A stretch of 52,613 bases of DNA from Pirellulales bacterium (GTDB taxonomy: Bacteria; Planctomycetota; Planctomycetia; Pirellulales; UBA1268), in the NCBI GenBank assembly GCA_044337765.1, contig JBIIMX010000001.1, positions 1 through 52,613 of the forward strand. Reading direction: 5' to 3'. The stretch's first letter is position 1. Every line of letters starts with the position of its first letter. The notes beneath the pieces are model-generated. The model did not search any database. It was not told the DNA's origin and worked only from the letters and a program-made list of their open reading frames with translations. This document shows, in pieces, positions 9,377 through 43,656 of the stretch. The position numbers and the translations under genes were made by a program.

Positions 9377-9377
9377 G

Positions 9378-22487: not shown

Positions 22488-22985
22488 ATGTGCATGCGCG
22501 TACGACTATTCAGCAGGATTGTCTTTTTGATTCCGTGCTTGATCGCGGGTTGGCCGACTCCTCACCTGTCGGCCGGTGAAGCGAAGACGGCGACCACCAC
22601 TGCCTCGAATCCGTTTGCGATTCCAGGAATCGACCGGTTGGTTGAAGCCGCTACTACAGAGGTAAAACGATCGGGTGATCGATTCCGGATCGCCGCATTC
22701 GACGACGTGCGCGACGTCATGGCTCATGCATCGGAGTGGATCTGGTATTCACGAGACAATGGCGTCCTGTTGGCTATCCCGGTTCGCGAGCGGCTGGGTA
22801 TTGCAGCCAAAGTCGAGGGTGAAAAAGCCTTGGCGGACGTTGTCCGACGACTCATCAATCAGGCCGGGTGGGGCAATCCACCGGTGCAGGTCGTCCTGAT
22901 CGAGCCCGAAGAGCCTCGCTTCGTGCCTCAATACGGTCGACCGTCCGCACCTATTCCGGCCATCTCTTGTTGTGGCTGCGACTGA
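22488..22985 (+). CDS. Small exported protein X1 (paralog of 42169..42765), Cys-rich C-terminal tail
   Basis: 165 aa. Signal peptide RIVFLIPCLIAGWPTPHLSAG. Shares EWIWYSRDNGVLLAI / DWHFYSRDRGILIAI and VVRRLINQ...VQVVLIEPE / VVEAVIRQ...VMVIFIDPA with X2. Ends in SCCGCD. Confidence 0.7.
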   Translation: MCMRVRLFSRIVFLIPCLIAGWPTPHLSAGEAKTATTTASNPFAIPGIDRLVEAATTEVKRSGDRFRIAAFDDVRDVMAHASEWIWYSRDNGVLLAIPVRERLGIAAKVEGEKALADVVRRLINQAGWGNPPVQVVLIEPEEPRFVPQYGRPSAPIPAISCCGCD

Positions 22986-23001
22986 GTCTACGCCAGCACG
23001 G

Positions 23002-24984
23002 TCATGGCACGAGGCTGCTCGCGTCGAACCAGAAGGCAGCCCCGCCTCGGGACTTGAGGGCCCTGCTCAAGCCGTCGACTCGCTCCGACAATCGACCAAT
23101 CTCCCTGGCAGCTGCCGGTCGATCCTTTTCGTAGGCGACAGAGGGGAACGGCAGCGCGGCCTTCAGCCGGAGCCCGAAAATATCCTCTAGGAAAACGCCG
23201 ACACTTCTGCTCTCCACAGGCATGCGATTCCATGCTGCACGCATGCGATCGCCGATCAGCCGATGCTTCGACACAGACTCGAGATCATCCGCCAGGGCTG
23301 CGATCACCGCATTCCCGTCGATCTGTTCACCACGGGCGAACGTGTCGCGCAGGTCGTCGAACATCCGGCCCACCGCCTCCTGCTCCGGTTCGGCGAGCAG
23401 GAAGAGTTCTCGGAATTGGGGCTGAGCCAACCCTGCGTCTTTCGACGTCGGGTGGAAGAGCCAACCACGTGACGGAACAAAGTATTGGAGATATCGATCG
23501 TCGAACGCTGCACGATCCAGCCCGCGTTTTTTCATGGCCTCGAGGAGTTTGGGCCCCGGGGCCGTGTACGGGGTCCGGGATTCCATCCGTTCGACCACAC
23601 GGCGTAGTTGCAGCCGCCGCAATTCAGTGGCCTCGCTCGCTGCCTGGAGCGCCTCCTTCAAGTTGTTGGTTCCAGCTTCCTGGTAGACGACGAGTCCTTC
23701 CGTATCCCCCAATTGTTTTACGGCCTCCGCAACTGCGGCACTGTCTTCCTTGAACAGCATCTCGTCCGGTGTCCTGCGCCGTCCCACGTGCATGAAGAAG
23801 ACAGACGCCCCCGTGTCCTCGATTTTTCTCGCGATGTCCGCCACGAGCGCCGGTTTCGCCGGGTCATCAGGCTCGTGGCCCGTATCCCCGAGCACCGTGA
23901 CGAACAGCGTGGCCCCGCGTTCGAACTCGAGGTTTGCCAAGCAATCGCGCAGCCCCTCCAGCATCCTCTCCGGTGGATTGGCGTACTCGCTGGGGGGGAG
24001 GAAGTGTCCGAGCTTCTCCACATCGTCGGCGAGCGACTCGACGTCCGTGGCCTCCTTCACATCTTGGAAGTCGCCCAACGTGACGCGAAGTTCGCCCTCG
24101 TCTGGCGTGTCCGCGGGACCGTCCCGATACGAACACACCGCCATTTTCACGGGCGTCGGTCGCGCTTCGGCGACCTCGCCCGCGTCGCGGATGAACTTTG
24201 CGACGATTTGACTGAACGGCGCCATACTCACCGTATCGTCGATGACAAACACCATCTCGAGCCCCTTTTCCTCGGCGGCCATCTCCCTGCGCTTTTCCAG
24301 CAGCTCCCTGTCAACTGGTCCACCGCAGACGGCCCCCATGTGGACGAGTCGATTCTCGATCGGGACGCCGAATCGGAATGTTGGAGTCGTATCGGGGTGC
24401 TTCCGATCCCGCTTCTCGGGTGAGATTCGCAATTCGACGAATGGAACCACGTCGTCAATCGTGACCGGCTCCCAGGTCTCCGCCCCCTCCCGTTCGTTCA
24501 CTACGACCGTTTTCTCGGCTCCCTGGAGGTTGCCGTTTACCTGCGCCACAAGCCGCTCGTAACTCTCCTTCGAGTCGTCGTGCAGGTCGGCAAGCCGCTC
24601 GCGCTTGCGTCGGGCGAAGGTGTATGCATAGCGACTCTGGAGCAGGTGCACGTGCACGCCGCGTGCCCATCCCAGCGGCGATTCGGCCGTGTAGCCGTCC
24701 TGCAGAAGGTGCCACTCGGCACTGGCCGAGTCGGTCCGCGTCTCGACGACGAAATACGGCCGAAAGAGAGGCAGCACCGTGTCCAGTGGCTTGCCGCCGG
24801 GGCCATCGTGAACCCGTAGCTCGTCGATGTCCTCGCCATCCAGTCTTCGGACGCCCATCGCCAGCTGTGGCACGAGCGAATCGCCCACGAACCCGCATGC
24901 GGACGGAGGCGCCGCCGTAACAGCCGACGCCGTAGCCCAGCAGGCCGCAACGCACACGAGTGTTTTCTGCCACCCGCTCATCAT
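23002..24984 (-). CDS. Exported von Willebrand factor A (vWA) domain protein V1 (paralog of 40155..42149)
   Basis: 660 aa. Signal peptide TLVCVAACWATASAVTA. MIDAS-like MVFVIDDTVSM plus downstream VLGDTGHEPDDP. Many blocks are shared with V2. Its start overlaps the C1 stop (ATGA). Confidence 0.8.
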   Translation of the reverse strand: MMSGWQKTLVCVAACWATASAVTAAPPSACGFVGDSLVPQLAMGVRRLDGEDIDELRVHDGPGGKPLDTVLPLFRPYFVVETRTDSASAEWHLLQDGYTAESPLGWARGVHVHLLQSRYAYTFARRKRERLADLHDDSKESYERLVAQVNGNLQGAEKTVVVNEREGAETWEPVTIDDVVPFVELRISPEKRDRKHPDTTPTFRFGVPIENRLVHMGAVCGGPVDRELLEKRREMAAEEKGLEMVFVIDDTVSMAPFSQIVAKFIRDAGEVAEARPTPVKMAVCSYRDGPADTPDEGELRVTLGDFQDVKEATDVESLADDVEKLGHFLPPSEYANPPERMLEGLRDCLANLEFERGATLFVTVLGDTGHEPDDPAKPALVADIARKIEDTGASVFFMHVGRRRTPDEMLFKEDSAAVAEAVKQLGDTEGLVVYQEAGTNNLKEALQAASEATELRRLQLRRVVERMESRTPYTAPGPKLLEAMKKRGLDRAAFDDRYLQYFVPSRGWLFHPTSKDAGLAQPQFRELFLLAEPEQEAVGRMFDDLRDTFARGEQIDGNAVIAALADDLESVSKHRLIGDRMRAAWNRMPVESRSVGVFLEDIFGLRLKAALPFPSVAYEKDRPAAAREIGRLSERVDGLSRALKSRGGAAFWFDASSLVP

Positions 24985-26666
24985 TTCATACCCTGCCCAA
25001 GGTTCAGCCGAGCGTCTGGTCGGGCTCCGATGGCATCGAGAACGTCGTCAATGTGCTCCACGAGCTCATCCGATTTTGGTGAGCGGGCCGTGACCTGGCC
25101 GTCGCTGACCTCGTCCTTCATCGCCTCCCCGAGCGCCCGGGCCCGTTCCGGATCGGCGTCTGGGCAAAGGAACGACACGGCACCGCAACCTTCGGAAGCC
25201 AGGGAACTGAAGACATGGAGGTTGGTCGCCGACACCAACTCCCGCTCGGGCCAGACGACGACCGTGCGGATGTCGGGGTTTGCTGAATCACGTCGCGCGC
25301 GGACGATGGTCTCCACGACCCGCTCCACCTGGCTCTCGAGGTCTTGGCGGGAAGTGGTGAATGGTTTGAACGCTTTGGCTGCCTCCGGCGGTTCGCTGCT
25401 CTCGTTGAGCAGCGTGTCGGTGCCATCGGCGTTGATCACGATCGCACCCTGATTGTAGGGCTTGCGATCCTTGATTGCTTCCCGGACTTGAGCCGTGATG
25501 ACATCACCCGGTTCGTGCAGACGCTGATCGTTCACGAGGTAGATCATGAAGTCGGCCGGTTTCGGCTTGCCACCGCCAGCTCCACCACCGCCAGCTCCAC
25601 CACCGCCAGCTCCACCACCGCCAGCTCCACCACCGCCAGCTCCACCACCGCCTGATCCACCACCGCCTGATCCACCACCGCCTGATCCACCACCGCCTGA
25701 CACACCACCACCTGGTCCACCCGTTGGTGCGCCACACACGCCGCACGAGCCACCTTTGCCATCACAGGGGCCGCACTTCCCGCTTCCGCGACACGCGGGA
25801 GAGTCGCCGCCTTTTCCCTTGCATGCATCGCATGAGCCCGAGCCTCTGCATGCCTTGCACGGGCTGCCGGCGCCCTTGCATTTGTCGCACATTCCGCTCC
25901 CAAGGCCGCAGGCCTCGCAGCCACCGGATTTGCCACCACATTTGGGGCATGCCGGCTTGCCGGACGGCTCGCATCCGCATCCCTTGCCGCCGCACTTCTT
26001 GCAACTGCCACTCTTGCCGCACGAAGCGCAACCTCCTTCTTTGCCTTTACAGTCGCCGCATGCTCCCTTGCCGTCACACTGATCGCAACGATCACCCTTG
26101 CCCTGGCACCGATCGCACTCAGGGCGTGTGGAGTTGCAGGCATCGCAGCCACCCTTGCGGTCCCCGCATTTCGCACAGGGCTTCCGGCACTTCTCGCATC
26201 CGCCGGACTTGTCGCCACACTGCGCGCAGGCCGCTTCGTCAGCAGGAACGGCTACGGGAACCCCGCCGGCAGCACCAGCTTGGCCGTTCCGCACGACGAA
26301 TGGGCCCAGTCGCACCATCCGCTCGCCAGCGGGGATGACTCCACCCGACTTGAAGGCCAATCCCCGCATGGCCAGCGTCACAGGGTAATCATCTTTGAGC
26401 GGGCGTGTGATCTCGGCCACAACCCAGAATGGCTCCCCCTGACGCCAACTTCCGATCCGTTGGCCCTCCTCATCTTCGAGCTGAAAACGGACCGCGGCCA
26501 GCGAGCTCGTGTCACCGCTGAGTGCGTATGAGGAGCACGAAAGCCCCACCATCGCTGCGGTCAGCGCGACGTGCAGCAGGCGCCATCTTCCGATTGCCGG
26601 GTAAAACGATCGGTCTGTAGCCATGTCGAGTTCCCTGTTCACGATTGCGCTTTTCCCGAGCTTCAT
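24981..26666 (-). CDS. Exported/anchored protein C1: conserved N and C domains split by a DnaJ-type CxxCxGxG zinc-finger-like array and a (G4S)n(G4A)n linker (paralog of 38374..40158)
   Basis: 561 aa. Hydrophobic WRLLHVALTAAMVGLSCSSYALSG. 16 CxxC motifs between aa 147 and 311, for example CDKCKGAGSPCKACRGSGSCDACKGKG. Then GGGGS and GGGGA repeats, then a C-terminal domain shared with C2 (IRTVVVWPERELV, VSFLCPDAD). The start could instead be the internal Met at MATDR. Confidence 0.8.
   Translation of the reverse strand: MKLGKSAIVNRELDMATDRSFYPAIGRWRLLHVALTAAMVGLSCSSYALSGDTSSLAAVRFQLEDEEGQRIGSWRQGEPFWVVAEITRPLKDDYPVTLAMRGLAFKSGGVIPAGERMVRLGPFVVRNGQAGAAGGVPVAVPADEAACAQCGDKSGGCEKCRKPCAKCGDRKGGCDACNSTRPECDRCQGKGDRCDQCDGKGACGDCKGKEGGCASCGKSGSCKKCGGKGCGCEPSGKPACPKCGGKSGGCEACGLGSGMCDKCKGAGSPCKACRGSGSCDACKGKGGDSPACRGSGKCGPCDGKGGSCGVCGAPTGGPGGGVSGGGGSGGGGSGGGGSGGGGAGGGGAGGGGAGGGGAGGGGAGGGKPKPADFMIYLVNDQRLHEPGDVITAQVREAIKDRKPYNQGAIVINADGTDTLLNESSEPPEAAKAFKPFTTSRQDLESQVERVVETIVRARRDSANPDIRTVVVWPERELVSATNLHVFSSLASEGCGAVSFLCPDADPERARALGEAMKDEVSDGQVTARSPKSDELVEHIDDVLDAIGARPDARLNLGQGMK
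25569..25721. repeat. Perfect 15-bp in-frame tandem repeats encoding the (G4S)/(G4A) linker
   Basis: On the plus strand, GCTCCACCACCGCCA occurs five times, followed by CCTGATCCACCACCG-type units (three or more). This lies inside the C1 coding sequence. Confidence 0.9.
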
Positions 26667-26675
26667 TGGGGGTGT

Positions 26676-26704
26676 TTGCGTAGTCCCAACCGTTTAGATA
26701 CTAT
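26676..26704 (+). promoter_or_regulatory. Candidate sigma70-like promoter for the core operon
   Basis: TTGCGT (26676-26681), a 17-nt spacer, then TACTAT (26699-26704), about 100 nt upstream of the ATG at 26807. It lies in the 140-bp divergent intergenic region between C1 and the core. Promoter rules for this phylum are poorly known. Confidence 0.3.
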
Positions 26705-26806
26705 CCCCCCAACCGAGGTGCGGTCCAATATGGTGCCACACCTTTCATCAGATGGGCACATCACCGCATAGGACTGCGGTGCGACTTCATTAACGGAATC
26801 GGTGCG

Positions 26807-28270
26807 ATGGTCGAGTGTGGCGTCACGGCTGACACATCTGCTTGGGAGCCCATTGCCTACGCCGCAGATCTCCAGCCACTGTACAGCGAGTTTGGAGACT
26901 ATCCAAGCCACGCGTTTGTCCGAGAGTTGGCTCCTGGAGTCGAGTATCACCAACCCGCGAGCATCGGCGGCCTGAGGACATGGTTACATCGCAAAGTTGA
27001 GTGGCAGTCGCGCTACTTGATGCCCTACCCAGGCGAAGTACCGCCGACCTCGGAAGACCTGCTCGACATCCAGGCCAGATTTGCCGGCCAAAGAGCAACG
27101 TTGAAGGACGGCGATGCCGCCCTCACGAGACTCGACGCGATCATCGATCAGTTCCTGGGCCTGGTGTGCGAGTTGCACGAAAACCAGATGCCGCTCGGGT
27201 TCGTAAATCCCCGGTCAGTGCGATTTGTCCGAGACGCAAGCGGCTCCGAAACCGTGCAGCTGCCAGACTTAGGTTTTGTCTTCAACGTCAACTCGCGCGC
27301 AGCTGCCCTGCCGAAGTGGCTCGAAGATCCCTCCATGAACGTCCTGTTTGACAGCGGCGCTGAGGCGAGGAATGAGGCTTACTATCAATGGATCTGCGAC
27401 AAAAGCCACGCAAACTTCGAGACACTGGCCTTCCAGGACGTGAAAATAGTTGGGCGGCTCATTGCATTCGCGTTGGCTGGCGAGTCGCAAGTGCGGAGGT
27501 GGGGTGGTGGTGAATGCCTGCATACCATCCCGCCACCCGCCGGCACGTTGAACGACACGGCCTGTGGCCCCGTGTGGGATGCAGTGAGTCGGGCAATCTC
27601 CGGTGAAACGCTGTCCGTTGCGGAGCTTCGGGAGGCTCTGCGCCGCGAGGACGCACGGCCAAGCAGGCACTTTCTCGTAAAGCCGCCCAAACCGCCGCCA
27701 CATTGGGTGGTGACGCTGGTGAAGCGGATCGCGAAGCCTGCTCTCGCGTCGGCAGCAGCGCTGCTGGTTGCGGGAGCAACGTGGGCGGCGTGGCAGGCGT
27801 TCGGCCCCCGATACACGTCGATTTGTCCGCATGTCTGGTCGTGGAATAGAGAGCTCTATCCGAGCCTGGTGGACCTCGAATCGCAAAAAGGCGCTGCAGC
27901 CGCGAACGACGTTGCGAAGCAGCGATTCCGTGAATCCCTCAAGCAATACGTGCAGTTGCTAAGGTCCAGCGCAAGTCACCCGTGCGATGGATCGTGCACC
28001 GACACACTCGTCGCATTGACCGAACCGTGGATCGACGATGAAGTCGACGGGACCTTGGAAACCCTGAGGCTGCAGCCTCGACAAAACGATGACGAAGTGG
28101 CGATTCTGACAGCCACAAAAGCCATCGTCGATGAGCTCAACTCGTTGCGCCGCGAAACGTCGCCACCGCTTTTTCAGTCGGCCGCGCAGACGCTTGACAG
28201 GCAACTGTCGCTCCGCGGGGCGGCCGAAGCAGCCGGAGATCGGTCCCCAGTGGAAGACGCCAAACCATGA
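26807..28270 (+). CDS. Single-pass membrane protein; cytoplasmic N-domain with a possible degenerate protein-kinase-like motif
   Basis: 487 aa. TM at ALASAAALLVAGATWAAWQAF. The segment LVCELHENQMPLGFVNPRSVRFVRDASGSETVQLPDLGFVF resembles the kinase catalytic loop plus DFG region, but the HRD Asp, Lys and Asn are substituted. No clear Gly-loop or VAIK. Confidence 0.6.
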   Translation: MVECGVTADTSAWEPIAYAADLQPLYSEFGDYPSHAFVRELAPGVEYHQPASIGGLRTWLHRKVEWQSRYLMPYPGEVPPTSEDLLDIQARFAGQRATLKDGDAALTRLDAIIDQFLGLVCELHENQMPLGFVNPRSVRFVRDASGSETVQLPDLGFVFNVNSRAAALPKWLEDPSMNVLFDSGAEARNEAYYQWICDKSHANFETLAFQDVKIVGRLIAFALAGESQVRRWGGGECLHTIPPPAGTLNDTACGPVWDAVSRAISGETLSVAELREALRREDARPSRHFLVKPPKPPPHWVVTLVKRIAKPALASAAALLVAGATWAAWQAFGPRYTSICPHVWSWNRELYPSLVDLESQKGAAAANDVAKQRFRESLKQYVQLLRSSASHPCDGSCTDTLVALTEPWIDDEVDGTLETLRLQPRQNDDEVAILTATKAIVDELNSLRRETSPPLFQSAAQTLDRQLSLRGAAEAAGDRSPVEDAKP

Positions 28271-28314
28271 ATGCTCACTTTTGCCCGTTGTCTCGTTGTC
28301 TCAGGAGAATCACC

Positions 28315-29637: not shown

Positions 29638-29753
29638 CTGCACGGCGTGGCGCGCGGGCCGCGAGGTCCGCGCGCCACACACACACCGACTGCTCCCGGT
29701 GAAATTGGCTTCGAGTACCGAAAGACCGGTCGAAAACTGAGGAACGATCATTT

Positions 29754-31856: not shown

Positions 31857-31873
31857 GTTTTCGCGGAGTAACA

Positions 31874-34420: not shown

Positions 34421-34438
34421 CAACGCAAGGAGTGCGTC

Positions 34439-37400
34439 GTGGGTGCTTCGTCCAAGGAGGAGCTTCGCAGCCAGCTCGCGAATGAATTTTCGCATGCAGC
34501 AGACCTGTATCGCCAGGTCGCAGGCTTACTCGAGCAGTCCGAACCCGGGCTGAGTCAGGTGTGTCGCGCTTTGCTGGCAGAGCCTCCGGGGTTTCAAGGG
34601 CAGCCCGACCAGATTGCTGATGAAGCAGCCAGCGACAAACCGCAACACGTTATCCACCTGATGCAATGGTGGGCAAGCTACGGTGACTTCGAGGCCGTGC
34701 TGATGAGCGCAGCACCGTCCACTGGAAAGCCGGGCTTTTTTGCTTCGAAGGACAAAGGCTTATCAAAGGCCAAGCTGGAGATCGCCCGTGCAAAGGTATA
34801 CGGCAATCAAGCATGCCGTCCTTTGAACTGGTATGTGCAGCTATCCAAGAGCACAGCCAAAGATAGTTTGTGCAGTGCGGCCGTAGCCGAGGCACTACGC
34901 GTCTATGCCAACGGGGATTGGAAGACGTTTGACGATCTCAAAGTTGATTTTTTCGATGCAGTTACTCGGTCGATCGGGTTGCGGATGCTCTTACTCTGCC
35001 GCCATGATCGGGGACTGTCTGAGAAGGATCTATGCGAACTCGCCGACCAACTGGGGCTCGCCGTCAACAGCGAGCCGGCATCGGAATCACCCGCTACTTC
35101 GGGCGCGGTCCGACCTGCATTGTGGGATTTTGAACGGTCGACAAGGAACATCCGTCCGGCGTTTCGAGTGTCCGGACACCTTCTGCCCGCCACATGCTTG
35201 GTCGCCAGGCCCAAGTCGTACCTGCGTATGGCATCGAAATACGAGAGCGACCAACATGCGTGGAAGCGGGAGAGGTTGATCAAGGCGGCACGGCACAGTT
35301 GGCCGAGCAGTCAAGATTTCGCCAAAAAGATCCTCGGCCTCTTGAGTACGCCCGAGAGGGCGCACAATGGCGTGTCCGCGCTAAAGGCCTTAGCAGGATT
35401 TCTTACACTTGCACTCGAGACCGCACCAGCCAAGGAGCAACTCAAGGAGAAGCAGTCAAACTTCTTCACGCAATTGCAGGAATGCTTGAAGGTAAGCGAT
35501 ACCCGGATACTCGCCGTACGTCCGAACACAGATCGAGCATTTCGTCGAGTTCCGTGTCGCACTGCCGAACAGGAAAACCGCATATGCTACTTGAAGATTG
35601 ACAGAGAAGATATCGCGATTGGGAAATTACGCAGGTGCGAAGCCGAAGACGACGTGTTCGATGCGGTGTGGCTGTACGACCTACACCTGTGGGCGGTCGA
35701 CGAGGTGTCGCAACGATCGAAGCACCTTGGGTACACGGCGTTGATGGCTGCCCTGAATCAAGCAGGCTGCTGGGACAATGCCTGGGAAGAGATCAAGAAA
35801 TCGTTGCTCGGCCTGACCTCTGATGCTTCGGCCGAGGCTATTGCGCAAGCGTTCTCCGCACTGTGGCCCCGCGTGCTAGCTTTTAGGGCTGTAGCGGCCA
35901 AGGAGAAGAGTGGTGCAGAGCAACTGTTTGATGAAGTGGATCAATTACTGAAGGAGATGGTCCACGCCACGCTTCAACTGCTTGAGAAGCGAGGCGGGAC
36001 CACCTTTCCGCCGCGATTCAGCAGGGTTGAGCAGGCTGGCGAAATCGATCTGAAGCAATGGCTGGCAGAGGACGGGCGCTGGCAGGATGGCCACAGTGTC
36101 GAGATTGAGGTGCGTTCCGGTGCAGGGCCGGAACTCGTGGAGGCAGCGGCTCCGACGCGGCTGCAAATGGACCTGCCGGGCTTCGATGAACACAACCCGC
36201 ACGATGTTCGACTTGTGAACATGCCGGGTGTCTTCTTCTGGCGCGGCGGTGATCCACCGCCCTACGTCCGACTTATTCACCAGCACGTCTGCGAGCCAAT
36301 CGTTGCAGCGTTCAGCGGCGGCAGTCCAGCCCCGGTTGATTTCGGCACAGCCCTGAAATCCCTGAGACAAGCTTTCTCATCGGGCGACGGAGCGAAAGCC
36401 TTCGACGGCTTGGTCAAGGCGGCTGTCGAAGGTAATGACAATGCCACAAGGTGGTTGGATTATTTAAAGGAGGAACCCCGCTTTCAACTCGACTGCTTCC
36501 CGAGGATCGAGAATCACGAGGGTAAATGGATACCGTCTGCCCCTGGCGGTGATGACGAGTACGTGCAGTGGGACTACGACGACAGATCCCCCAAAACATT
36601 GATCCGCGTGACGTATGCCATGAACTCAGCAGCCTCCGCCGCTGTTTTCAGCAAGGGTCCCCGGGATAAGTTTTTAGAACTAGCGGCTGCTGACGCTGTG
36701 AACCAATGGTGCGTGCGGGTTGGCGGCGAAGCTACCGAACGGGGCAATGACCTGCTCCGAGCAACGGAGCGGCATTGGGCGTTCGACCATCCGCTTGGCA
36801 CGACTGTTCGGCTTGCTGCTGAGTTGCTCGACCAAATCGGCGAGGCCGGCACCATCGGCAAAACTGTAGATCCGAGCGAAATCGACAAGCTTCGTGACGA
36901 CGGTTATCAGGCCCTGAAGGCCTGGCTCGCCGCTGTCGAGGGAGTCGTGACGCCCGACGACTGGTCGGCCCGGGAGGGGAGCGACCCTCGTGCGGAAGAC
37001 CGCGACACACTCTCGTGGGCTTTCAGTTCCTTGGTGCCGACAGGCCGCACCATCGTGCATGAGTTTGGTGTAAAAGCTTTCGACTACGAAAAGCCGTTTG
37101 CGGGCGCGCTGTCTGCTGGAAAGCCATTTCCGGGCTATGAAGAAATCGATGACATGTCACGCACGTTCTGGACTGGGGCGTGGGCAGAACTCGCAGCTAT
37201 GTGGAACCGTGTGCCTGGACTTTCGGACAAGAACAGACGCGCCCGCGTCCTGTACCAAATCTATCAGGATTTGTCGTTGCGAGAGACTAACGAGTCGGTT
37301 TCCTGGTACGCGAGTGCGAAGGACAAGCTTGTGTCGATTCTTGAAGCTGAGTTTGGATGGGAGCCGTTCCCAGATGAGGATGAAGTTGAGCTGGGGCCCT

Positions 37401-37540
37401 CTCTGGCGGTCGATCGAGTTGAGCTCGAGGACGGGCGAAAGGCTGTGAGCGGCGCAGTAGTGAAGGTAATCGCGAAGGGCTTCAAGCAACGAACTGACCG
37501 AGATGGCGTAACGCAGCCCGCCATCGTCAAACAAAAGTAA
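34439..37540 (+). CDS. Large orphan protein (1033 aa) with GrpE-like C-terminal tail
   Basis: Long uninterrupted ORF with ordinary composition, starting 18 nt after the Hsp70-like stop. No domain is recognised except the last roughly 70 aa (LEAEFGWEPFPDEDEVELGPSLAVDRVELEDGRKAVSGAVVKVIAKGFKQRTDRDGVTQPAIVKQK). This resembles the GrpE C-terminal beta-domain pattern FG.E......DP..H.A.......  G.V..V.QKGY......RPA.V.V. Confidence 0.75.
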   Translation: MGASSKEELRSQLANEFSHAADLYRQVAGLLEQSEPGLSQVCRALLAEPPGFQGQPDQIADEAASDKPQHVIHLMQWWASYGDFEAVLMSAAPSTGKPGFFASKDKGLSKAKLEIARAKVYGNQACRPLNWYVQLSKSTAKDSLCSAAVAEALRVYANGDWKTFDDLKVDFFDAVTRSIGLRMLLLCRHDRGLSEKDLCELADQLGLAVNSEPASESPATSGAVRPALWDFERSTRNIRPAFRVSGHLLPATCLVARPKSYLRMASKYESDQHAWKRERLIKAARHSWPSSQDFAKKILGLLSTPERAHNGVSALKALAGFLTLALETAPAKEQLKEKQSNFFTQLQECLKVSDTRILAVRPNTDRAFRRVPCRTAEQENRICYLKIDREDIAIGKLRRCEAEDDVFDAVWLYDLHLWAVDEVSQRSKHLGYTALMAALNQAGCWDNAWEEIKKSLLGLTSDASAEAIAQAFSALWPRVLAFRAVAAKEKSGAEQLFDEVDQLLKEMVHATLQLLEKRGGTTFPPRFSRVEQAGEIDLKQWLAEDGRWQDGHSVEIEVRSGAGPELVEAAAPTRLQMDLPGFDEHNPHDVRLVNMPGVFFWRGGDPPPYVRLIHQHVCEPIVAAFSGGSPAPVDFGTALKSLRQAFSSGDGAKAFDGLVKAAVEGNDNATRWLDYLKEEPRFQLDCFPRIENHEGKWIPSAPGGDDEYVQWDYDDRSPKTLIRVTYAMNSAASAAVFSKGPRDKFLELAAADAVNQWCVRVGGEATERGNDLLRATERHWAFDHPLGTTVRLAAELLDQIGEAGTIGKTVDPSEIDKLRDDGYQALKAWLAAVEGVVTPDDWSAREGSDPRAEDRDTLSWAFSSLVPTGRTIVHEFGVKAFDYEKPFAGALSAGKPFPGYEEIDDMSRTFWTGAWAELAAMWNRVPGLSDKNRRARVLYQIYQDLSLRETNESVSWYASAKDKLVSILEAEFGWEPFPDEDEVELGPSLAVDRVELEDGRKAVSGAVVKVIAKGFKQRTDRDGVTQPAIVKQK

Positions 37541-37573
37541 AGCCGGTGCACTAGGCCTGATTATGGAGATGGC

Positions 37574-38377
37574 ATGGGTTCGAATCTAAATGCGTTGATT
37601 AAGGAAGGTGTGGGCGGAGGCGCATCTTGGTGGCTCGACGCCCTAGGGATTGTCACGGGCATGATCGCGGCAGCTGTGATCATACTCATCGGGCGGCCCG
37701 CAGGCGGGTGGGCCCAGCAACTCGGGGCAGCCACGGTGATGGCGATCGGGATGTGTGCGGGCGCGGTCTTGCCGTTGCTGTGGCGAGTCGCCGGTGCCCG
37801 CTCCATAGGAAGCCGCTTGGCGGCGCAGCATGCTCCGCCTGACCCGAGTGGTCTTCGGAGTCGTTTTTCTGCGGGCGTATTTCAAGCCAGCAATTTGTCG
37901 CCCGATCGGTGCAGTTCCGAGGACTTACGGCGTGCCGCCGCGCACGCATCCGCCGAATTCGCACGGTTCGCGGCACGCACTGCGATTCCTGCTAGTTTCG
38001 TGGCGTTTCTGGCACCGGTGGTAGCGTTGGTTGGAGGCTGGAATGTGGCGAGGCAGGCCGGGCCGAACACCTATTCATTCCAGTCGATGGCACCGTCGAT
38101 GATCGCGGGAATCGCCTGCGCCGCCGTCGTGGTTCTGCTGATCGAGCTTTACGTGGTGGCCATGCGCGCAGCTCCGTCACGGTGGGCCACTTCCGTGGGT
38201 GGCTCGGGAACGACCAGTGTGCCTGATCATGGCTCAGGGTCGAAGTCAGGGGCCGGCGACGCCCCCCCGGATTTAAAATCAGGTTCTACGATCGACGTTC
38301 CGCCCGTAGCAAAGGGAATGTCGGTGGACGAGTTCACCAGACTATTTGATGGCCCGGGCACATCCGGCGATTCGTGA
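37574..38377 (+). CDS. Polytopic membrane protein, hypothetical
   Basis: 267 aa with at least four hydrophobic segments (LGIVTGMIAAAVIILIG, ATVMAIGMCAGAVLPLLW, FVAFLAPVVALVGGW, MIAGIACAAVVVLLIELYVV) and a Gly/Ser-rich tail. Its stop overlaps the C2 start (GTGA). Confidence 0.7.
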   Translation: MGSNLNALIKEGVGGGASWWLDALGIVTGMIAAAVIILIGRPAGGWAQQLGAATVMAIGMCAGAVLPLLWRVAGARSIGSRLAAQHAPPDPSGLRSRFSAGVFQASNLSPDRCSSEDLRRAAAHASAEFARFAARTAIPASFVAFLAPVVALVGGWNVARQAGPNTYSFQSMAPSMIAGIACAAVVVLLIELYVVAMRAAPSRWATSVGGSGTTSVPDHGSGSKSGAGDAPPDLKSGSTIDVPPVAKGMSVDEFTRLFDGPGTSGDS

Positions 38378-40158
38378 AGGTTACCGTGTCTCGTTCAGGC
38401 GAACCGCAGTTATCGCCGTTCATCATAGCCACGCCGTGGGCGGTGTGGGTCTACGTGTTGTCGCTCGTTTGCTGCCTTCTGCCTCAGGGCGAGAAAAGCG
38501 AGCCTTTAGAAAGATCCGTCCTCACCGTCTCGAACTCCACAGTTCATGTGCCTGAGAACGCACCAAATGGGCTCGCGAACGCGGTGGCTTTCGAACTAAG
38601 CAAGCCGCTCGACTTTCGCCTCGAGGTGCCGGTGACCGTGACTGACGGCTCGGCGAGGCTGGGGGAACACTACGCCATGCGGCGCCGGCCGCGGGTGATT
38701 TTCGAGGCAGGTTCCAAGCAGGGCGTGCTGTCTGGAGACGGCGATGGATGCGACGTGGTCATCACTGACGACCACGAACTGCTCGACGGGGAGCCACGCT
38801 CTTTCGACATCACGCTCGGAACGGTTGAAGGCATCGTGGAACTGGACGCGAGCCGATCGACGTGCCGCGTCAGCATCGATGATGACGAGAAACCACCCAC
38901 CTCTCGCGTCAAGATCCGGTTCGCTTTCAGTGGTGGCGAATTGACGGAGTCGCAGGTCGCAGGTCATTCGCTTTCGGTGCAAGCGGAAAAGGCCCCGGAG
39001 GAAAAGTCGGAGATGACCGTCGTCGTCCAACTGCAGTCCGGCAAGGAGCCGAAGGATCTTGGACGCAAGACTTTCTTCCTCGAACCAGGGCAGACCGCAC
39101 TCACGTTCCGCGTGTCCGACGTTGTGCCGCTCGAACAGCTGAAAGCCTTCGGCCTGACCGATGACGATGCTCCTGGGCCATCTTCGGAGATCATCGTGCG
39201 GCTGCGCGGCCAGCATCCGCTCTACGCCGACGAACCACGGGACCTTACGTTCCGGGTGACCGACAACGACCCAGCCGCGAAACTGTCCATGGCGATCCAA
39301 GACACGGCCGGCCAACCACTCGACCGAATCCTGCCCGGCTCCCCCTTCTGGGTCGTCGCCGATGTGGATCGCGGACTCCGCCTCGGATTGCCCCTTCAAA
39401 TCAACCTCGACAAGGGCGGCCCGATTGTCACCGGCACGCTCGCCGCAGGAGAGCGAAGCGTCCGTCTCGGACCACTGAGTGCAAGCCCGGGCCCTGAAAG
39501 GACGATCGAGGTCGCGATGGCGGTGCCCGCGAACGCGGCTGCGCGACCCTTCGTCGAGCTGCCCGTTCCCGAGAGTCTTCCCAAGGGGCCCAAGGACGAC
39601 AGTCGATTCGCGGTGATCGTCGTCAACACGTCGCGACTGCGGGAACCGGACAATGGCATCCTGGAGGCCGTGTGGAAATACATGATACCGAACGGAAAAT
39701 CTTCCTTCCGGAATGGCATGCTGCTCGTGGGGCCGGCGCGACCGAAGGTTCTTTCGGGAGAGACATTGCCGGTTGAGAGTGTGGGCTTCACCCCGCTCGT
39801 CAAGGACGGCCAGGGCGTCTCAGCGCAACTGAACAAGGTCTTGGAAGTCGTTTCGTACGTGCGGCAGGAGAACCAAGATCCCACCATCCGCATCGTCGTT
39901 GTCTGGGCAGAACGCGGCCTCGAATCGTCAGTCGCGGCATCCCGACTAAAGCCCATCGACCGGGAGAAGTATGGACCGATCTCGTTCCTCTGCCCGAGCG
40001 CTGACGTCGATGGCAGGGGTGCGATACGAGATGCCCTCGTCGGAGTCGGCAGCGCCGATGTCGAAAGCGTGACCGTTCGCTGCCCGGACGTGGACGAATT
40101 ATCCGAGCACATTCGCTGGGCGATCGATGGATTCCGAGCACCGGAAAAGACCAAGTGA
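38374..40158 (+). CDS. Exported/anchored protein C2 with Calx-beta-like repeats (paralog of C1)
   Basis: 594 aa with an N-terminal hydrophobic segment. Calx-beta-like unit: VPVTVTDGSARLGEHYAMRRRPRVIFEAGSKQGVL...VVITDDHELLDGEPRSFDITLGTVEG, with further similar units. The C-terminal two-thirds aligns with C1 (GSPFWVVADV, AGERSVRLGP, IRIVVVWAERGLE, ISFLCPSAD). Confidence 0.8.
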   Translation: MKVTVSRSGEPQLSPFIIATPWAVWVYVLSLVCCLLPQGEKSEPLERSVLTVSNSTVHVPENAPNGLANAVAFELSKPLDFRLEVPVTVTDGSARLGEHYAMRRRPRVIFEAGSKQGVLSGDGDGCDVVITDDHELLDGEPRSFDITLGTVEGIVELDASRSTCRVSIDDDEKPPTSRVKIRFAFSGGELTESQVAGHSLSVQAEKAPEEKSEMTVVVQLQSGKEPKDLGRKTFFLEPGQTALTFRVSDVVPLEQLKAFGLTDDDAPGPSSEIIVRLRGQHPLYADEPRDLTFRVTDNDPAAKLSMAIQDTAGQPLDRILPGSPFWVVADVDRGLRLGLPLQINLDKGGPIVTGTLAAGERSVRLGPLSASPGPERTIEVAMAVPANAAARPFVELPVPESLPKGPKDDSRFAVIVVNTSRLREPDNGILEAVWKYMIPNGKSSFRNGMLLVGPARPKVLSGETLPVESVGFTPLVKDGQGVSAQLNKVLEVVSYVRQENQDPTIRIVVVWAERGLESSVAASRLKPIDREKYGPISFLCPSADVDGRGAIRDALVGVGSADVESVTVRCPDVDELSEHIRWAIDGFRAPEKTK

Positions 40159-42149
40159 CACAATTCACGCTGCTGATTCGGACATCGTTTTTGGTATGTG
40201 TCGTCGCACCCGCCTGCATAGTGGCAGCAGGCGGACGGAATGCCCATGCGCAGAGCGGTGCGCCACGCGCATCGCCGCCATCGACCGCGGCACACACCAC
40301 GTTTGTGCCGGACACGCTGATCCCGCGGCTCGCCATGGGGGTGAGACGAGGAGTCAAGGACTCGAGAGAGGTCGCCGAATTGAGGGACCGACCGGGCGGT
40401 GCGATCGTAGGACGAGTTCCACTGTTTTCAGCGATGTTCGTCCACGCTGAACAACGACTCGACTCCCAGGACTGGGTTCTGCTCGCCAGCGGGTACGCGG
40501 GCGACAAGGCAGGCAAGCGGGGCTGGGTGCCCCGCTCCGATATCGAGGTGTTTTCAACCCGCTACGGCTACGTCTTGCACGACACGGGAAACGCGACGGA
40601 GTTTTTCCCGACGCCCGGGGACGCCTACGCGATCGTCCCCGGAATCGGCCCCAAGGGCCAAGCGACGCCCTCGCAGTCGGCCTCCGTGCTTGGGCGGCCG
40701 GACGCCGCTGGCTGGCAGCCGTTGCGGCGAACTGACCAGATGCCCTTCATGGAGTTGGAATTTGATCGGCGGTCTGGTTATCCGTCGACCACTCCATCGA
40801 TTGCGACGCCGTACGACGGCCGGCTTGTACGCGTCGGAGTCATTTGTGGCGGCCCGGTCGACAAGGTGGAGCTTGCGAGGCTCAAGGAAGAGGCCGACCG
40901 GAAGCCCGCGATCGAGATGTTGTTTGTCGTCGATGAGACGTTGAGTATGGGCCCATTCTTCCCTGGTGTGTCTGACTTCATCCGAGCGGTAGGCCAGGCG
41001 GCGGGCAACGGCCGGCAACCCCGAATCGCTGTTTCGTACTACACGGATGGACCAGCAGGTGAAAGAACGACCTGTGAGCCTTTGCGAAACGCGACGCCAC
41101 AGTTTGTCACGGCATTGGCGAATTCGGTGAAGCAGCACAAGCAGAAGATTCCCCCTGGAGACTTCATCAATCCGCCGGAGCGGATGCTTGAGGGGATGCG
41201 GGACGCGATCCAGAAGGCAGGATTTACAAAAGGTAACACGTCGATCGCCGTGGTGATCGGCGACACCGGCCACGAGCCGACGGACCCTGACAAGAAGAGA
41301 TTGCTCGACGGAGTGGCCGGAGTGGTTGCTGACCACGGCCTCATGGTCTTCTTCGTGCATGTAGGCCTAGCGAACAATCAAATGAACCCGGCTCAACAAC
41401 TGTTCAAGGATGACATGCTTGCATTGCAGACGCGTGTCGCCAAGCGTGACAAAGCTCTTGCCGATCGCGTCATATACACCACGGCGAATGCCGGCAACCT
41501 GACCGCGGAACTCGAGGGATTACGGCGCGAGGCTGACCGATTGGCCGAGCAGGCCCAGTTGATGGCTGGCCGTATCACCTCGCGCAACACCAACACGATG
41601 CCGGGGCCGGCCCTGGTCGCCACGATGAAGCAGGACGGCGTGACCTTGGCCCAATTCAACGACGCGCATCAGCAAATCTACGTGCCAAGCTATGCGTGGA
41701 TGGCATCACCGAGAGACGCGGGGGCGAATGGCGGATCTCGCGCCCGTCTGTCGAGATACATCTGCCTCGCCGCGGAGGAACAACAGGCACTCGCCGCCCT
41801 GCTGGAGTCGGCGCAGAGGAATGTTGACGCTGGATTGGCCGTCGATCACGACAATGCCGTGCAGGCGTTCGTGCAGTCGCTGCGGGCTGCAACGACGGGC
41901 TCAGCCGCCGTGGAAGCCGCTCACGCGAACTGGAAGAAACTGGGGCCCGATCGAACGGCCGGCGGATTTCTCCACAAATTCCTTGGCCTCGGCATCCAAG
42001 CAGAGATGCTTTTCAGTTCGAGCCCACCAGGCAACACTGAAGAGATGGCCGATGCGAAAAACTCACTGCAGGCCCTGACGACCGTGGTACGCGAGGCCAG
42101 CCGTGACAAAGACAGGTTTTGGTTCGAGGCCACCAGCCTGGCGCCATGA
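40155..42149 (+). CDS. Exported vWA domain protein V2 (paralog of V1)
   Basis: 664 aa. Signal-like FLVCVVAPACIVAAG. MIDAS-like MLFVVDETLSM and VIGDTGHEPTDP. Shares LAMGVRR, ICGGPVD, NPPERMLEGMRD and FWFEATSLAP with V1. GTGA overlap with C2. Confidence 0.8.
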   Translation: MTQFTLLIRTSFLVCVVAPACIVAAGGRNAHAQSGAPRASPPSTAAHTTFVPDTLIPRLAMGVRRGVKDSREVAELRDRPGGAIVGRVPLFSAMFVHAEQRLDSQDWVLLASGYAGDKAGKRGWVPRSDIEVFSTRYGYVLHDTGNATEFFPTPGDAYAIVPGIGPKGQATPSQSASVLGRPDAAGWQPLRRTDQMPFMELEFDRRSGYPSTTPSIATPYDGRLVRVGVICGGPVDKVELARLKEEADRKPAIEMLFVVDETLSMGPFFPGVSDFIRAVGQAAGNGRQPRIAVSYYTDGPAGERTTCEPLRNATPQFVTALANSVKQHKQKIPPGDFINPPERMLEGMRDAIQKAGFTKGNTSIAVVIGDTGHEPTDPDKKRLLDGVAGVVADHGLMVFFVHVGLANNQMNPAQQLFKDDMLALQTRVAKRDKALADRVIYTTANAGNLTAELEGLRREADRLAEQAQLMAGRITSRNTNTMPGPALVATMKQDGVTLAQFNDAHQQIYVPSYAWMASPRDAGANGGSRARLSRYICLAAEEQQALAALLESAQRNVDAGLAVDHDNAVQAFVQSLRAATTGSAAVEAAHANWKKLGPDRTAGGFLHKFLGLGIQAEMLFSSSPPGNTEEMADAKNSLQALTTVVREASRDKDRFWFEATSLAP

Positions 42150-42168
42150 ACCAATGTTGCCTGAAATG

Positions 42169-42765
42169 CTAGCGGCATTCGCACGCTTGGCTATTTGAAA
42201 CGCCTGTCGAAAAGCCTGACCAGGGAGCGATCCCAACAGGATTCATTCCGTATCCCCATCCCGACTGACTGCCGCTCTCGATTGGGGAGGAATAGACGGG
42301 GCGGTAGTGTGACTGCCGCGTGCTGGATTCGTGGATGGCGGGATCGATGAAAATCACCATAACGCGGTCGCTGATCGCCATATCCCGCTCTTGGCGAATC
42401 ACGGCCTCGACCACACGGGCGATCTTGGATGGACCGGAACTCCGAGTCGCCAGAGATACGTCGGGCCCAGCGTCGATCGCGATGAGAATTCCGCGATCAC
42501 GGCTGTAAAAATGCCAGTCGGCTGGGGCGGCAGTGACGATCCTCACCAGTTCAGCGTTCTCAAAAGCCGACCCTTCCTTGCTATCCGTGTATTCAGTTTT
42601 GATGTAGTCCGCGCTCTTAGACGCAATATCGGCACCGTGAGCAACGACCCACCTCCCCTCTGGGGCTGAGATTTGGCCGCATGCAACGTCGCACACAAGA
42701 GCGATGAGAAGGCATGCGGCTGCTCTGACCGGCATAATACGCATAATCCGCAAGCTCCTGGCCAC
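42169..42765 (-). CDS. Small exported protein X2 (paralog of X1), Cys-containing C-terminal tail
   Basis: 198 aa. Signal peptide VRAAACLLIALVCDVACG. Blocks shared with X1. Ends in SQACECR. Convergent with V2 across a 19-nt gap. Confidence 0.7.
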   Translation of the reverse strand: MARSLRIMRIMPVRAAACLLIALVCDVACGQISAPEGRWVVAHGADIASKSADYIKTEYTDSKEGSAFENAELVRIVTAAPADWHFYSRDRGILIAIDAGPDVSLATRSSGPSKIARVVEAVIRQERDMAISDRVMVIFIDPAIHESSTRQSHYRPVYSSPIESGSQSGWGYGMNPVGIAPWSGFSTGVSNSQACECR

Positions 42766-42932
42766 CTCAAATTTCCGAGTTTAAAAGACCTTAGCTCAGG
42801 AAGATGGGTTGTCAAGTTGGGACGGCGCGCCACCCTGCATGGCTGACAACCCGCCTGGCACCAAGTGGGGTATCTGTATTTCCAATGCGGGCTACCATCT
42901 CTTGTTCTTATCTGCCTTTTTGAAGGCAGCCA

Positions 42933-43616
42933 TCAGAACCGGGCTCCCGCAGCCCCGACGGCGAGCGCCCACCAGACCCCCGTCGTCACGCACCCGAGCG
43001 TACCAATACCGCCGAGGATTGCACCCGCGATCGCCAGGCCGCGATTCGCCTGATTCGTCCCGTTTAAAGCAACGAGACTCAAAATAAACCCCAGTGGTGC
43101 GGTGCAGCCGAGCATGGAGAGTACGAACCCGGCAATGGCCATGCCGTTGGATGCTTCCGCTTTTGGCTCTTCCCCCTTTCCGACGAACAGAGCCAATTCA
43201 GGAATCGATCGTACGACGACCCACTTATCCCACCCCTGTTTGCAGACAACATCGTCTTTTTTGATGATGCCGCTGGCCAGATACTGCTGCAGGGTTGCAA
43301 GAGGCACCGGGTCCGGTTGCTGCGTGCCGTGCAGCACGATAAACCAAAGATCCTGGCTTGGGCTTAGCTCGGGGTTGGTTATCGCAGGCACCGAGGCCCC
43401 GTTCTCAATTACGGGCGCGGGGACAACACTCGGTTTCCGGAATATCTCCGGAAAATCACCGGCCTTTCTCCAGTCAACGCCGTCTCGCGAAACTTCCGAA
43501 CGGCTGCCCACCATGCCACGTTGCACTCGCTGCTGCATCTCGGACAGCGCAAATGGACCGAGCGTACTGCCTCGCACCCGGAAGAAATAGGGACGGGAAT
43601 CGCCTGTATCGTTCAT
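42933..43616 (-). CDS. Tandem GYF_2 (DUF4339) domains + DUF4190-like membrane domain protein
   Basis: I use the internal ATG at 43616 (MNDTGDSRPYFFRVRGSTLGPFALSEMQQRVQRGMVGSRSEVSRDGVDWRKAGDFPEIF). Second GYF_2: LWFIVLHGTQQPDPVPLATLQQYLASGIIKKDDVVCKQGWDKWVVVRSIPELA. The C-terminal Gly/Ala-rich double-TM region (GMAIAGFVLSMLG...GLAIAGAILGGIG) is typical of DUF4190. Confidence 0.7.
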   Translation of the reverse strand: MNDTGDSRPYFFRVRGSTLGPFALSEMQQRVQRGMVGSRSEVSRDGVDWRKAGDFPEIFRKPSVVPAPVIENGASVPAITNPELSPSQDLWFIVLHGTQQPDPVPLATLQQYLASGIIKKDDVVCKQGWDKWVVVRSIPELALFVGKGEEPKAEASNGMAIAGFVLSMLGCTAPLGFILSLVALNGTNQANRGLAIAGAILGGIGTLGCVTTGVWWALAVGAAGARF

Positions 43617-43656
43617 AGCGGGTAGCTCGCACAACCAAGAGGCGTCACCGGGTAGA

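Follow-up and report, generated by a model that had tools for sequence, protein, structure and literature searches.

Which kind of system would combine a dynamin-like GTPase and an Hsp70-like ATPase, encoded side by side, with predicted periplasmic von Willebrand factor A (vWA) proteins? The question is raised by a 20-kb locus in a 52,613-nt stretch of DNA from a Pirellulales bacterium (contig JBIIMX010000001.1 of assembly GCA_044337765.1), the whole of which is called the window here. An earlier note on this DNA had described twelve genes in mirrored order, six core genes on the plus strand (G1 to G6) flanked on either side by a module of three genes (C, V, and X), and had recognized no named system in them. 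All 12 open reading frames (ORFs) were located at the coordinates given there (Table 1). We find that the conserved functional unit is a nine-gene cluster consisting of G1 to G6, C, V, and a convergent X. It appears to be a system specific to Planctomycetota that spans the cytoplasmic membrane, with an additional periplasmic cassette in the copy carried by the window.

The order G1-G2-G3-G4-G5-G6-C-V, with X convergent on V, is kept in relatives whose G4 proteins are only 25 to 40% identical. A motif scan of one genome per GTDB species returned 50 loci and a scan of metagenomes returned 80 further ones, giving a total of 95 distinct G4 groups at 90% identity. The carriers are almost all Planctomycetota (Gemmataceae, Isosphaeraceae, Pirellulales, Planctomycetaceae, and Thermoguttaceae) and include a cultured organism, Zavarzinella formosa DSM 19928 (Gemmataceae). 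Since the same gene order is found in dozens of divergent genomes, it does not result from chance. None of the three outcomes that the earlier note had named as fatal to its proposal occurred, for the gene set is syntenic in many genomes, the paralogous pairs align significantly, and no core protein was assigned to an unrelated, well-characterized pathway. When the remaining ORFs were clustered all against all, no further gene family was found to travel with the cluster. The distribution is patchy, and one metagenome-assembled genome (MAG), the Gemmataceae MAG palsa_1347 (PLDW01), has the whole cluster twice, in divergent copies (loci L030 and L042). In the search for viral or plasmid carriage, the only match was a distant Hsp70 on a contig of a giant virus; plasmids gave none. 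Six loci that hold the cluster, or its G4 gene, are from MAGs that bear the labels Alphaproteobacteria, Beijerinckiaceae, Bacteroidales, Chitinophaga, delta proteobacterium, and Bacteroidota (L009, L020, L051, L053, L054, and L056). Their GC content of 0.56 to 0.65 and planctomycete-like gene order suggest mis-binning, with lateral transfer as the alternative. On one metagenome contig (L117), a second G4-like gene lies upstream of the cluster on the opposite strand, at 1142-2800 (-).

The mirror symmetry to which attention had been drawn holds as an arrangement and not as the essence of the system. Both the mirrored order and the three paralogous pairs are as described: BLASTP aligns V1 with V2 end to end (33% identity, E = 6e-91), C1 with C2 over the C-terminal 180 residues (30% identity, E = 1e-17) and over a second block (E = 6e-8), and X1 with X2 (E = 9e-9), and these alignments contain all of the shared strings that had been quoted. 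The second, mirrored cassette (X1, then V1 and C1 on the minus strand) is, however, extra to the general pattern and restricted to one sub-lineage. It is found in locus L063, where a DNA identity of 82 to 91% runs from the 5' (promoter-proximal) end of the C1 gene through the intergenic region into the beginning of G1, and apparently, by gene sizes and order only, on contig P0013. We considered a recent inverted duplication as the source of the mirror image and rejected it, because V1, C1, and X1 share only 30 to 33% identity with V2, C2, and X2, less than with the cassettes of other lineages; V1 is 52% and X1 42% identical to the corresponding proteins of L009.

The genes are tightly packed. 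The C and V genes overlap by 4 nt in both cassettes (ATGA on the minus strand, 24984-24981, for C1/V1 and GTGA, 40155-40158, for C2/V2), as do G1/G2 and G6/C2, and the gaps measure 17 nt for G3-G4, 18 nt for G4-G5, and 33 nt for G5-G6, while the convergent pairs X1-V1 and V2-X2 are separated, by their coordinates, by 16 and 19 nt. The operon structure of the locus is read from gene spacing alone, and promoter and terminator scans gave no signal above chance. The divergent intergenic region between C1 and G1, 85 to 88% identical at the nucleotide level to that of L063, presumably holds the promoters of both genes; the lack of a match to the sigma-70 consensus in it is as expected for this phylum. 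Compared with the close relative L062, the ratios of nonsynonymous to synonymous substitution rates (dN/dS) lie between 0.08 and 0.36 for G1 to G6, C2, V2, and X2, and the genes tested are therefore real coding sequences.

The assignment of G3 as a dynamin-like protein (DLP) was borne out by a search of PDB with the family profile, which matched the protein SynDLP (Slr0869, 7zw6) with an E value of 7e-15 and next mitofusin-1 with an E value of 1.8e-5. The alignment to SynDLP covers the GTPase domain (residues 31 to 318) and further stretches (395 to 561) that reach into the helical neck or stalk. In 23 family members, the P-loop G72xxxxGKS79, the switch I residue T106, and the switch II motif D262xPG265 are invariant, and a conserved segment with R319, W321, and D328 aligns to RVFYVFNRIDD of SynDLP, a candidate position for the base-specificity motif (N/T)KxD. 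Pfam Dynamin_N is matched with an E value of 0.007. G3 also gives the locus its only match to a named system, a partial one to the PADLOC LeoBC model (E = 3.3e-5, profile positions 42 to 178 of 601), in agreement with the view that no named system covers the locus; PADLOC found no LeoA in the cluster, which thus lacks the combination of LeoA and LeoBC that Eleos/LeoABC requires.

For G4, sequence and fold both agree with the Hsp70-like assignment made before. The protein matches the nucleotide-binding domain (NBD) of DnaK with an E value of 1.5e-6, and its invariant residues (D195FGNT199, K280R281, D391E392..AAAF, Y429DCGGGTTD437, and V641Y..GNxSR) align with DnaK motifs, so that the catalytic Lys and Glu and the phosphate-1, phosphate-2, and adenosine motifs are all present. 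An AlphaFold2 model built from 21 homologs (predicted local distance difference test score [pLDDT], 81; predicted template modeling score, 0.84) consists of an N-terminal beta-rich domain (residues 1 to 185), an NBD with a long helical insertion, and a C-terminal beta-sandwich, whose strands at 728 to 833 form a substrate-binding-type domain (SBD-beta) after the NBD. The top Foldseek matches of this model are full-length DnaK, BiP, and Ssb, covering NBD and SBD-beta over ∼680 columns with E values of ∼1e-19. The helical lid (SBD-alpha) is not in the model, which ends shortly after the beta-sandwich, and searches with Pfam and NCBIfam found no DnaJ or GrpE domain in any cluster protein. Judged from its sequence and predicted fold, G4 is a divergent but complete Hsp70 with intact catalytic motifs. 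Its family is small, as an exhaustive hidden Markov model (HMM) search returned only 169 clusters at E values of ≤1e-30 among 1.84 billion (1.84e9) representatives.

The 1,033-residue G5 remains the orphan that it had been called, with no sequence match in Pfam, NCBIfam, PADLOC, or PDB. It is mostly helical and conserved in its C-terminal third, and an iterated HMM search found it after G4 in ∼40 loci; the AlphaFold2 model, made from only 6 close sequences, is poor (pLDDT, 46). A divergent GAP1 protein was tried as a candidate identity and rejected: G5 has no GAP1-N, -M, or -C domain, its alignment by hhalign to the GAP1 protein encoded elsewhere in the window reaches an E value of only 0.13, and 14 G5 homologs gave no GAP1 Pfam match at E values of ≤1. 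G3, G4, and G5 contain no transmembrane (TM) segments and are, together with the kinase-like domain of G1, predicted to be cytoplasmic.

Between this putative cytoplasmic engine and the periplasmic proteins stand G1 and G6. G1 had been described as a TM protein with a possible degenerate kinase-like motif; it is a single-pass membrane protein, and the motif received weak support. The protein consists of a kinase-like domain, the TM segment, and an extracytoplasmic helical domain with conserved cysteines, and 22 aligned sequences share the motifs LH..LG..P.N, LPDxGF, and DLRxLARLxAxxLxG. Alignment to PknB by hhalign (E = 8e-4; probability, 24%) pairs the catalytic loop, the DFG motif, and subdomain IX, and a PDB profile search gave weak kinase matches on the same segment. 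In the PknB alignment, the HRD aspartate is replaced by F in G1 and by L in the family consensus, the catalytic-loop lysine is also replaced, and the DFG-like aspartate D154 is kept. None of the 22 members matched Pkinase or any other Pfam family. Given the replaced HRD aspartate and the absence of a Pkinase match, G1 is at best a pseudokinase, and we regard it as a probable pseudokinase receptor with a putative kinase fold. G6 is polytopic, as had been noted, with four hydrophobic segments (21-39, 50-68, 137-155, and 177-195) in a 2+2 pattern; in most loci, the gene after G5 encodes a protein with this TM pattern, a homolog by position, and a BLAST family of these proteins extends across 15 loci. 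G2, whose exported nature is supported by a signal peptide, lies directly 3' of G1 in nearly all loci and is the most conserved component (94% identical to the protein of L062; dN/dS, 0.08), with no sequence match in Pfam, NCBIfam, PADLOC, or PDB. Searches with Pfam and NCBIfam were likewise blank for G1, G5, G6, C, and X. Each of G2, V, X, and C carries a signal peptide or an anchor. Together with the hydrophobic segments, these features lead us to infer that G1, G6, and the anchor of C span the membrane and that the periplasmic side comprises G2, C, V, X, and the C-terminal domain of G1.

The domain predictions made for the cassette proteins also held. The V family profile matches the vWA repeats of collagen VI with an E value of 1.3e-10, and the metal ion-dependent adhesion site (MIDAS) is intact, with D260, S264 (D260-x-T-x-S264), D298, E342, G369, and D370 invariant (V2 numbering); V1 carries the motif as DDTVSM ... 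GDTG. The C profile matches the Calx-beta domains CBD1/2 of NCX1 (E = 2.7e-4) in two stretches at ∼38 to 185, a result that applies to proteins of the C2 type. C2 is composed of a TM segment (17 to 35), two Calx-beta domains, a beta-domain, and a conserved C-terminal domain. C1, a protein with 38 cysteines, shares the beta-domain and the C-terminal domain and has a CxxC-rich array where C2 has its Calx-beta domains. Between this array and the C-terminal domain of C1 lies a (GGGGS/GGGGA)n stretch encoded by a near-perfect 15-nt tandem array (25570-25721; 10 copies, 94 to 98% matches), which may act as a linker of variable length. The possibility that the C-terminal domain of C is itself a vWA domain was rejected, as C and V align by hhalign with an E value of only 0.7. 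In X1, an alpha/beta core and a linker follow the signal peptide and the C terminus reads CGCD, whereas X2 ends in CECR, and the family alignment has an invariant W..RD..L.A core. The X profile gave one marginal match in PDB (3hiu, E = 0.017) and no hhalign signal to C or G2. Wherever one of the closer loci extends beyond V, a convergent X lies 3' of V. Across the set compared (X1, X2, and the X proteins of L006, L009, L010, L012, L013, L015, and L059 to L061), the proteins end in C-x-C plus one residue ([RHDNQ]; CGCR, CGCH, CGCD, CECR, and CNCR) after a Gly/Ser/Pro-rich linker.

Comparison with related loci revealed a mosaic evolution by cassette swapping that the earlier note does not contain. 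Relative to L060 and L061, the right cassette is 80% (C2), 76% (V2), and 57 to 69% (X2) identical at the protein level, whereas G3 to G6 are 25 to 42% identical and show no DNA similarity. DNA identity to these loci (83.8% to L060 and 81.5% to L061) is confined to the block 38542-42817, which starts just after the anchor of C2, and we infer from this that the N-terminal anchor belongs to the core unit. The converse is seen with L063: at the two ends, on the C1 side and in C2, the DNA is ∼90% identical, against 50 to 72%, mostly ∼60%, across G3 to G6; C1 is 87% identical to its homolog there, and the synonymous divergence (dS) is 0.49 for C2 and 0.85 for G1 but 2.5 to 3.8, that is, saturated, for G3 to G5. 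Even against L062, otherwise 84 to 93% identical in nucleotides, the N-terminal half of G5 falls to 56 to 65%, with a blastn gap at 34972-35672, and G5 is 64% identical at the protein level where the other genes are 82 to 94% identical. G5 is the most divergent gene in every comparison made and the fastest-evolving component. The contrasting identities and dS values of cassettes and cores thus lead us to conclude that the two are exchanged as modules and that G5 is hypervariable.

Table 1. Coordinates of the features of the locus and its right-hand neighbor in the 52,613-nt window
Feature	Position (nt)	Strand	Basis or relation
X1, left cassette, small exported protein	22488..22985	+	paralog of X2
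V1, left cassette, exported vWA protein with MIDAS	23002..24984	-	paralog of V2
C1, left cassette, anchored or exported protein	24981..26666	-	paralog of C2
Divergent intergenic region C1/G1, 140 bp	26667..26806		
G1, single-pass membrane protein, kinase-like	26807..28270	+	
G2, exported protein	28267..29637	+	signal peptide
G3, dynamin-like GTPase (DLP)	29754..31856	+	
G4, divergent Hsp70-family ATPase	31874..34420	+	
G5, 1033-aa orphan	34439..37540	+	
Hypervariable segment in N-terminal half of G5	34700..35900	+	nucleotide identity to L062
G6, 4-TM membrane protein	37574..38377	+	hydrophobic segments
C2, N-terminally anchored periplasmic protein	38374..40158	+	TM segment, Calx-beta
V2, right cassette, exported vWA protein with MIDAS	40155..42149	+	
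X2, small exported protein, convergent on V2	42169..42765	-	
Exchanged cassette block (periplasmic part of C2, V2, and X2)	38542..42817		nucleotide identity to L060/L061
Adjoining DO-GTPase/GAP1-N2/464-aa/GYF-TM system	42933..49674	-	Pfam matches

Directly to the right of X2, on the minus strand, lies a second, seemingly complete multigene system that the earlier note had passed over, as it had the recurrence of such genes beside the cluster. It encodes a GYF membrane protein (GYF_2 plus DUF4190), a protein of 464 residues with no Pfam match, a GAP1-N2/GAP1-M protein of 1,111 residues, and a DO-GTPase2 protein, with Pfam E values of 6e-21 for GYF_2, 1.6e-17 for GAP1-N2, 0.0035 for GAP1-M, and 0.0018, a weak match, for DO-GTPase2. 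By these domain matches, it is an example of the planctomycete GAP1-N2 plus GYF type of predicted "GTPase-centric" conflict system (PMC7159879). The DO-GTPase models match none of G1 to G6, C, V, and X, and DO-GTPase2 genes are found only as neighbors. In L017, GAP1, the 464-residue protein, and GYF are encoded directly upstream of G1 on the same strand; L021, L076, and L083 have 464-residue and/or GYF genes upstream; and in L031, L044, L049, L091, and L098, a DO-GTPase2-beta-helix fusion on the same strand ends within ∼80 nt of the G1 start or overlaps it. Homologs of the 464-residue protein adjoin the cluster in L017, L021, and L083. Since arrangements and lineages are varied, chance adjacency of the DO-GTPase genes seems unlikely. 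Genes in other flanks include one Cas_Csd1, a transposase, FtsK-like and ClpB-like ATPases, an ABC transporter, and a hybrid histidine kinase.

Other genes of the window lie farther out. At 49887-50672 (+) lies the gene for a fusion of a second GYF_2 protein with an RDD membrane domain; the C-terminal part of this fusion matches PADLOC PD-T4-6 (E = 8e-8). Just left of X1, at 20089-22248 (+), a 719-residue protein with prenyltransferase/squalene-hopene-cyclase-like repeats has a 47%-identical homolog just beyond X in L006 and L007 and may be a loosely linked neighbor. An integrative element of ∼7.65 kb (8038-15786) sits at a tRNA-Arg(CCG) gene (8038-8113), the 3' end of which (24 nt, 8093-8116) is repeated at 15742-15765. 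It carries genes for a tyrosine integrase (8066-9376, -), a DUF3987/Toprim primase-like protein (10190-12628, -), and a Caudovirus prohead protease S78 (13954-14637, -) and looks like a phage satellite. The idea that the cluster is cargo of this element was discarded, as the att repeat closes the element at 15765, 6.7 kb before X1.

What could such a machine do? We tentatively favor, with rather less than even confidence, a membrane-proximal conflict or surveillance system driven by nucleoside triphosphates (NTPs), for example one of anti-phage or anti-competitor defense. In such a system, the periplasmic vWA/Calx-beta cassette would bind a ligand or sense disturbance or damage of the envelope, G1 would relay this event across the membrane, the Hsp70-like ATPase together with G5 would gate the step, dependent on GTP, in which the dynamin-like protein assembles on the membrane, and the dynamin-like GTPase would then remodel, seal, or disrupt the membrane. 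The exchange of cores and cassettes, the hypervariability of G5, and the repeated presence of DO-GTPase/GAP1-N2/GYF genes beside the cluster favor a conflict role, as do its patchy distribution, its occasional second copies, and the role that DLPs are documented to have in phage defense, both for DynA (PMC12998192, where DLPs are also tied to membrane repair) and for a dynamin-type phage defense system (bioRxiv 10.1101/2022.05.11.491447). Of the two functions that had been proposed for the locus, both of them speculative, conflict or defense is therefore somewhat favored over uptake. Several results nevertheless weigh against a conflict system. The cluster encodes no recognizable effector (no nuclease, protease, TIR, or pore-former), and no PADLOC model classifies it. 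All of the genes tested are under purifying selection (dN/dS of ≤0.36), diversification proceeds by exchange with no demonstrable positive selection, and the periplasmic parts are in this sub-lineage more conserved than the cytoplasmic ones, the opposite of a simple variable external sensor. A neighbor of the DO-GTPase/GAP1-N2/GYF type is, by raw count, present in 9 of the 44 distinct lineages whose sequence extends 2.5 kb or more upstream of G1, and ∼80% of the lineages have no DO-GTPase neighbor in the flank examined, the flanks being heterogeneous and including housekeeping genes.

An explanation that we consider unlikely, but the most probable of the alternatives, is a physiological membrane-remodeling machine. 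By analogy with dynamin plus Hsc70 in endocytosis, the two NTPases would power invagination, vesicle formation or release, membrane repair, or the uptake of macromolecules wherever the periplasmic vWA/Calx-beta proteins mark a site. In its favor, only 17 nt separate the adjacent genes of the DLP and of a full Hsp70 fold, the cluster is old, with its order kept across several planctomycete orders, the periplasmic G2 and C are its most conserved proteins, purifying selection acts on the genes tested, most flanks consist of ordinary genes, and macromolecule uptake has been reported for planctomycetes (PMC3343278). A housekeeping role sits poorly, however, with a patchy distribution of 169 G4 clusters among 1.84e9 representatives and ∼50 GTDB species, with two copies in one MAG, with core/cassette exchange and a hypervariable G5, and with conflict genes as recurrent neighbors. 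That last association could instead mean that the cluster is a lineage-specific variable arm of the DO-GTPase/GAP1-N2 system, a fourth "theme" beside tubulin plus vWA, Hsp70 plus GrpE, and kinase plus PP2C plus vWA (PMC7159879), which would work only with DO-GTPase and GAP1. The direct adjacency here and in 8 other lineages, the Gemmataceae DO-GTPase2 fusion immediately upstream of G1 on the same strand, and the fact that Hsp70, kinase, and extracytoplasmic vWA parts also make up the GAP1-N2 themes (PMC7159879) would fit such an arm. We hold it to be improbable nonetheless, since ∼35 of the 44 lineages have no such gene in the upstream flank, the side and orientation vary (convergent and downstream here, co-directional and upstream elsewhere), G5 is not a GAP1 homolog, and G3 is of the dynamin type and not a DO-GTPase.

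Marginally less probable again is a role in the assembly of surface structures, adhesion, or kin recognition, in which C, V, and X would be displayed, the NTPases would serve as chaperones of export, assembly, or signaling, and the second cassette would provide a second specificity. GAP1-N2 systems do correlate with multicellular or rosette habits (PMC7159879). Moreover, adhesion and ligand binding are the classical roles of vWA/MIDAS and Calx-beta domains, the cassettes are modular, exchangeable, and sometimes duplicated, and C1 has a Gly-rich linker, probably of variable length, encoded by the 15-nt tandem array. The cluster encodes, however, no secretion ATPase, secretin, sortase, or outer-membrane component, and its most variable part, G5, is cytoplasmic; to our knowledge, neither Hsp70 nor dynamin acts as an assembly factor for bacterial surface fibers. 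That the genes stand together by accident, or are spurious ORFs of high-GC DNA that form no functional unit, could be argued from the lack of promoter and terminator signals above chance and from the several proteins with no database match. We regard this as very nearly disproved, as conserved synteny in 95 lineages, down to 25 to 30% identity, refutes it, and the tight packing with 4-nt overlaps and 17- to 33-nt gaps and a dN/dS of 0.08 to 0.36 for every gene tested speak against it too.

A more specific idea starts from eukaryotic endocytosis, in which dynamin and Hsc70 cooperate. By analogy, the cluster could encode a bacterial counterpart of this pair, a receptor-coupled machine in which ligand capture by the periplasmic cassettes would trigger invagination, scission, or sealing of the cytoplasmic membrane, powered by dynamin and Hsp70, for endocytosis-like uptake or for a new kind of membrane-based immunity, and G5 would represent a new class of hypervariable cytoplasmic adaptor. 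We think it improbable that this is so, but if it were, it would be a defense or uptake system with no precedent among those described. More generally, if our reading is right, the cluster adds a new architecture to the bacterial membrane-proximal NTPase systems and would, as far as we could find, be the first case in bacteria of a conserved operon that pairs a dynamin-like GTPase and an Hsp70, and this in a phylum with a long-debated membrane biology and reported macromolecule uptake. The analysis also defines five families for which there is no Pfam model (G1, G2, G5, G6, and X), in addition to the C-terminal domain of C, offers a clear example of a cytoplasmic engine and periplasmic cassettes being exchanged as modules, and ties the cluster to the DO-GTPase/GAP1-N2 systems, which are so far predictions only. 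The presence of the cluster in the cultured Z. formosa DSM 19928 makes these questions testable.

No description of the cluster was found in the literature, and no Pfam or NCBIfam model classifies the system, but several known systems share parts of it. Like the systems of Kaur, Burroughs, Iyer & Aravind 2020, it is membrane-proximal, multigene, NTP-dependent, and found in planctomycetes. The GAP1-N2 themes join a GTPase to Hsp70, a protein kinase, an extracytoplasmic vWA protein, and a large constant "third component" of ∼1,100 residues (PMC7159879). The GTPase of the cluster, in contrast, is a SynDLP-like dynamin-like protein and not a DO-GTPase, and no dynamin appears in PMC7159879; G5 has no GAP1 domains, the kinase-like protein is predicted to be catalytically dead, there is no FNIII-repeat protein, GrpE, DnaJ, PP2C, or tubulin, and most copies stand alone. 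With SynDLP, Nostoc BDLP, Bacillus subtilis DynA, LeoABC/"Eleos" of enterotoxigenic Escherichia coli, and IniABC of Mycobacterium tuberculosis, the cluster shares the GTPase motifs and helical stalk of a DLP. Unlike known DLP operons, it has a single DLP gene in place of a pair or a two-headed fusion and sets it among an Hsp70-like ATPase, a putative pseudokinase receptor, a 1,000-residue orphan, and periplasmic vWA cassettes.

G4 resembles DnaK, HscA/HscC, BiP, and Ssb in having the NBD motifs followed by a beta-sandwich but differs from canonical Hsp70s, to which it is only 14 to 16% identical, in its extra N-terminal domain of 185 residues, its long helical insertion, and a model with no helical lid, and in the absence of a J-protein or GrpE from the cluster. 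The combination of an extracytoplasmic or tethered vWA protein that has an intact MIDAS with an NTPase and constant components recalls MoxR-vWA and BatA-E, although the cluster has no MoxR or other AAA+ ATPase and its NTPases are dynamin-like and Hsp70-like. G1 has the topology of PknB-type receptor kinases, with a cytoplasmic kinase-like domain, one TM segment, and an extracytoplasmic domain, but the last is a helical bundle instead of PASTA repeats and the HRD aspartate is replaced. We note that the cluster is built of parts of known kinds (DLP, Hsp70, vWA, and Calx-beta) and that we found no described precedent for its combination of dynamin, Hsp70, pseudokinase, and vWA. It is not categorically new, because its parts are known and its logic resembles that of the systems of Kaur et al., which likewise unite an NTPase, a vWA protein, and a large constant component.

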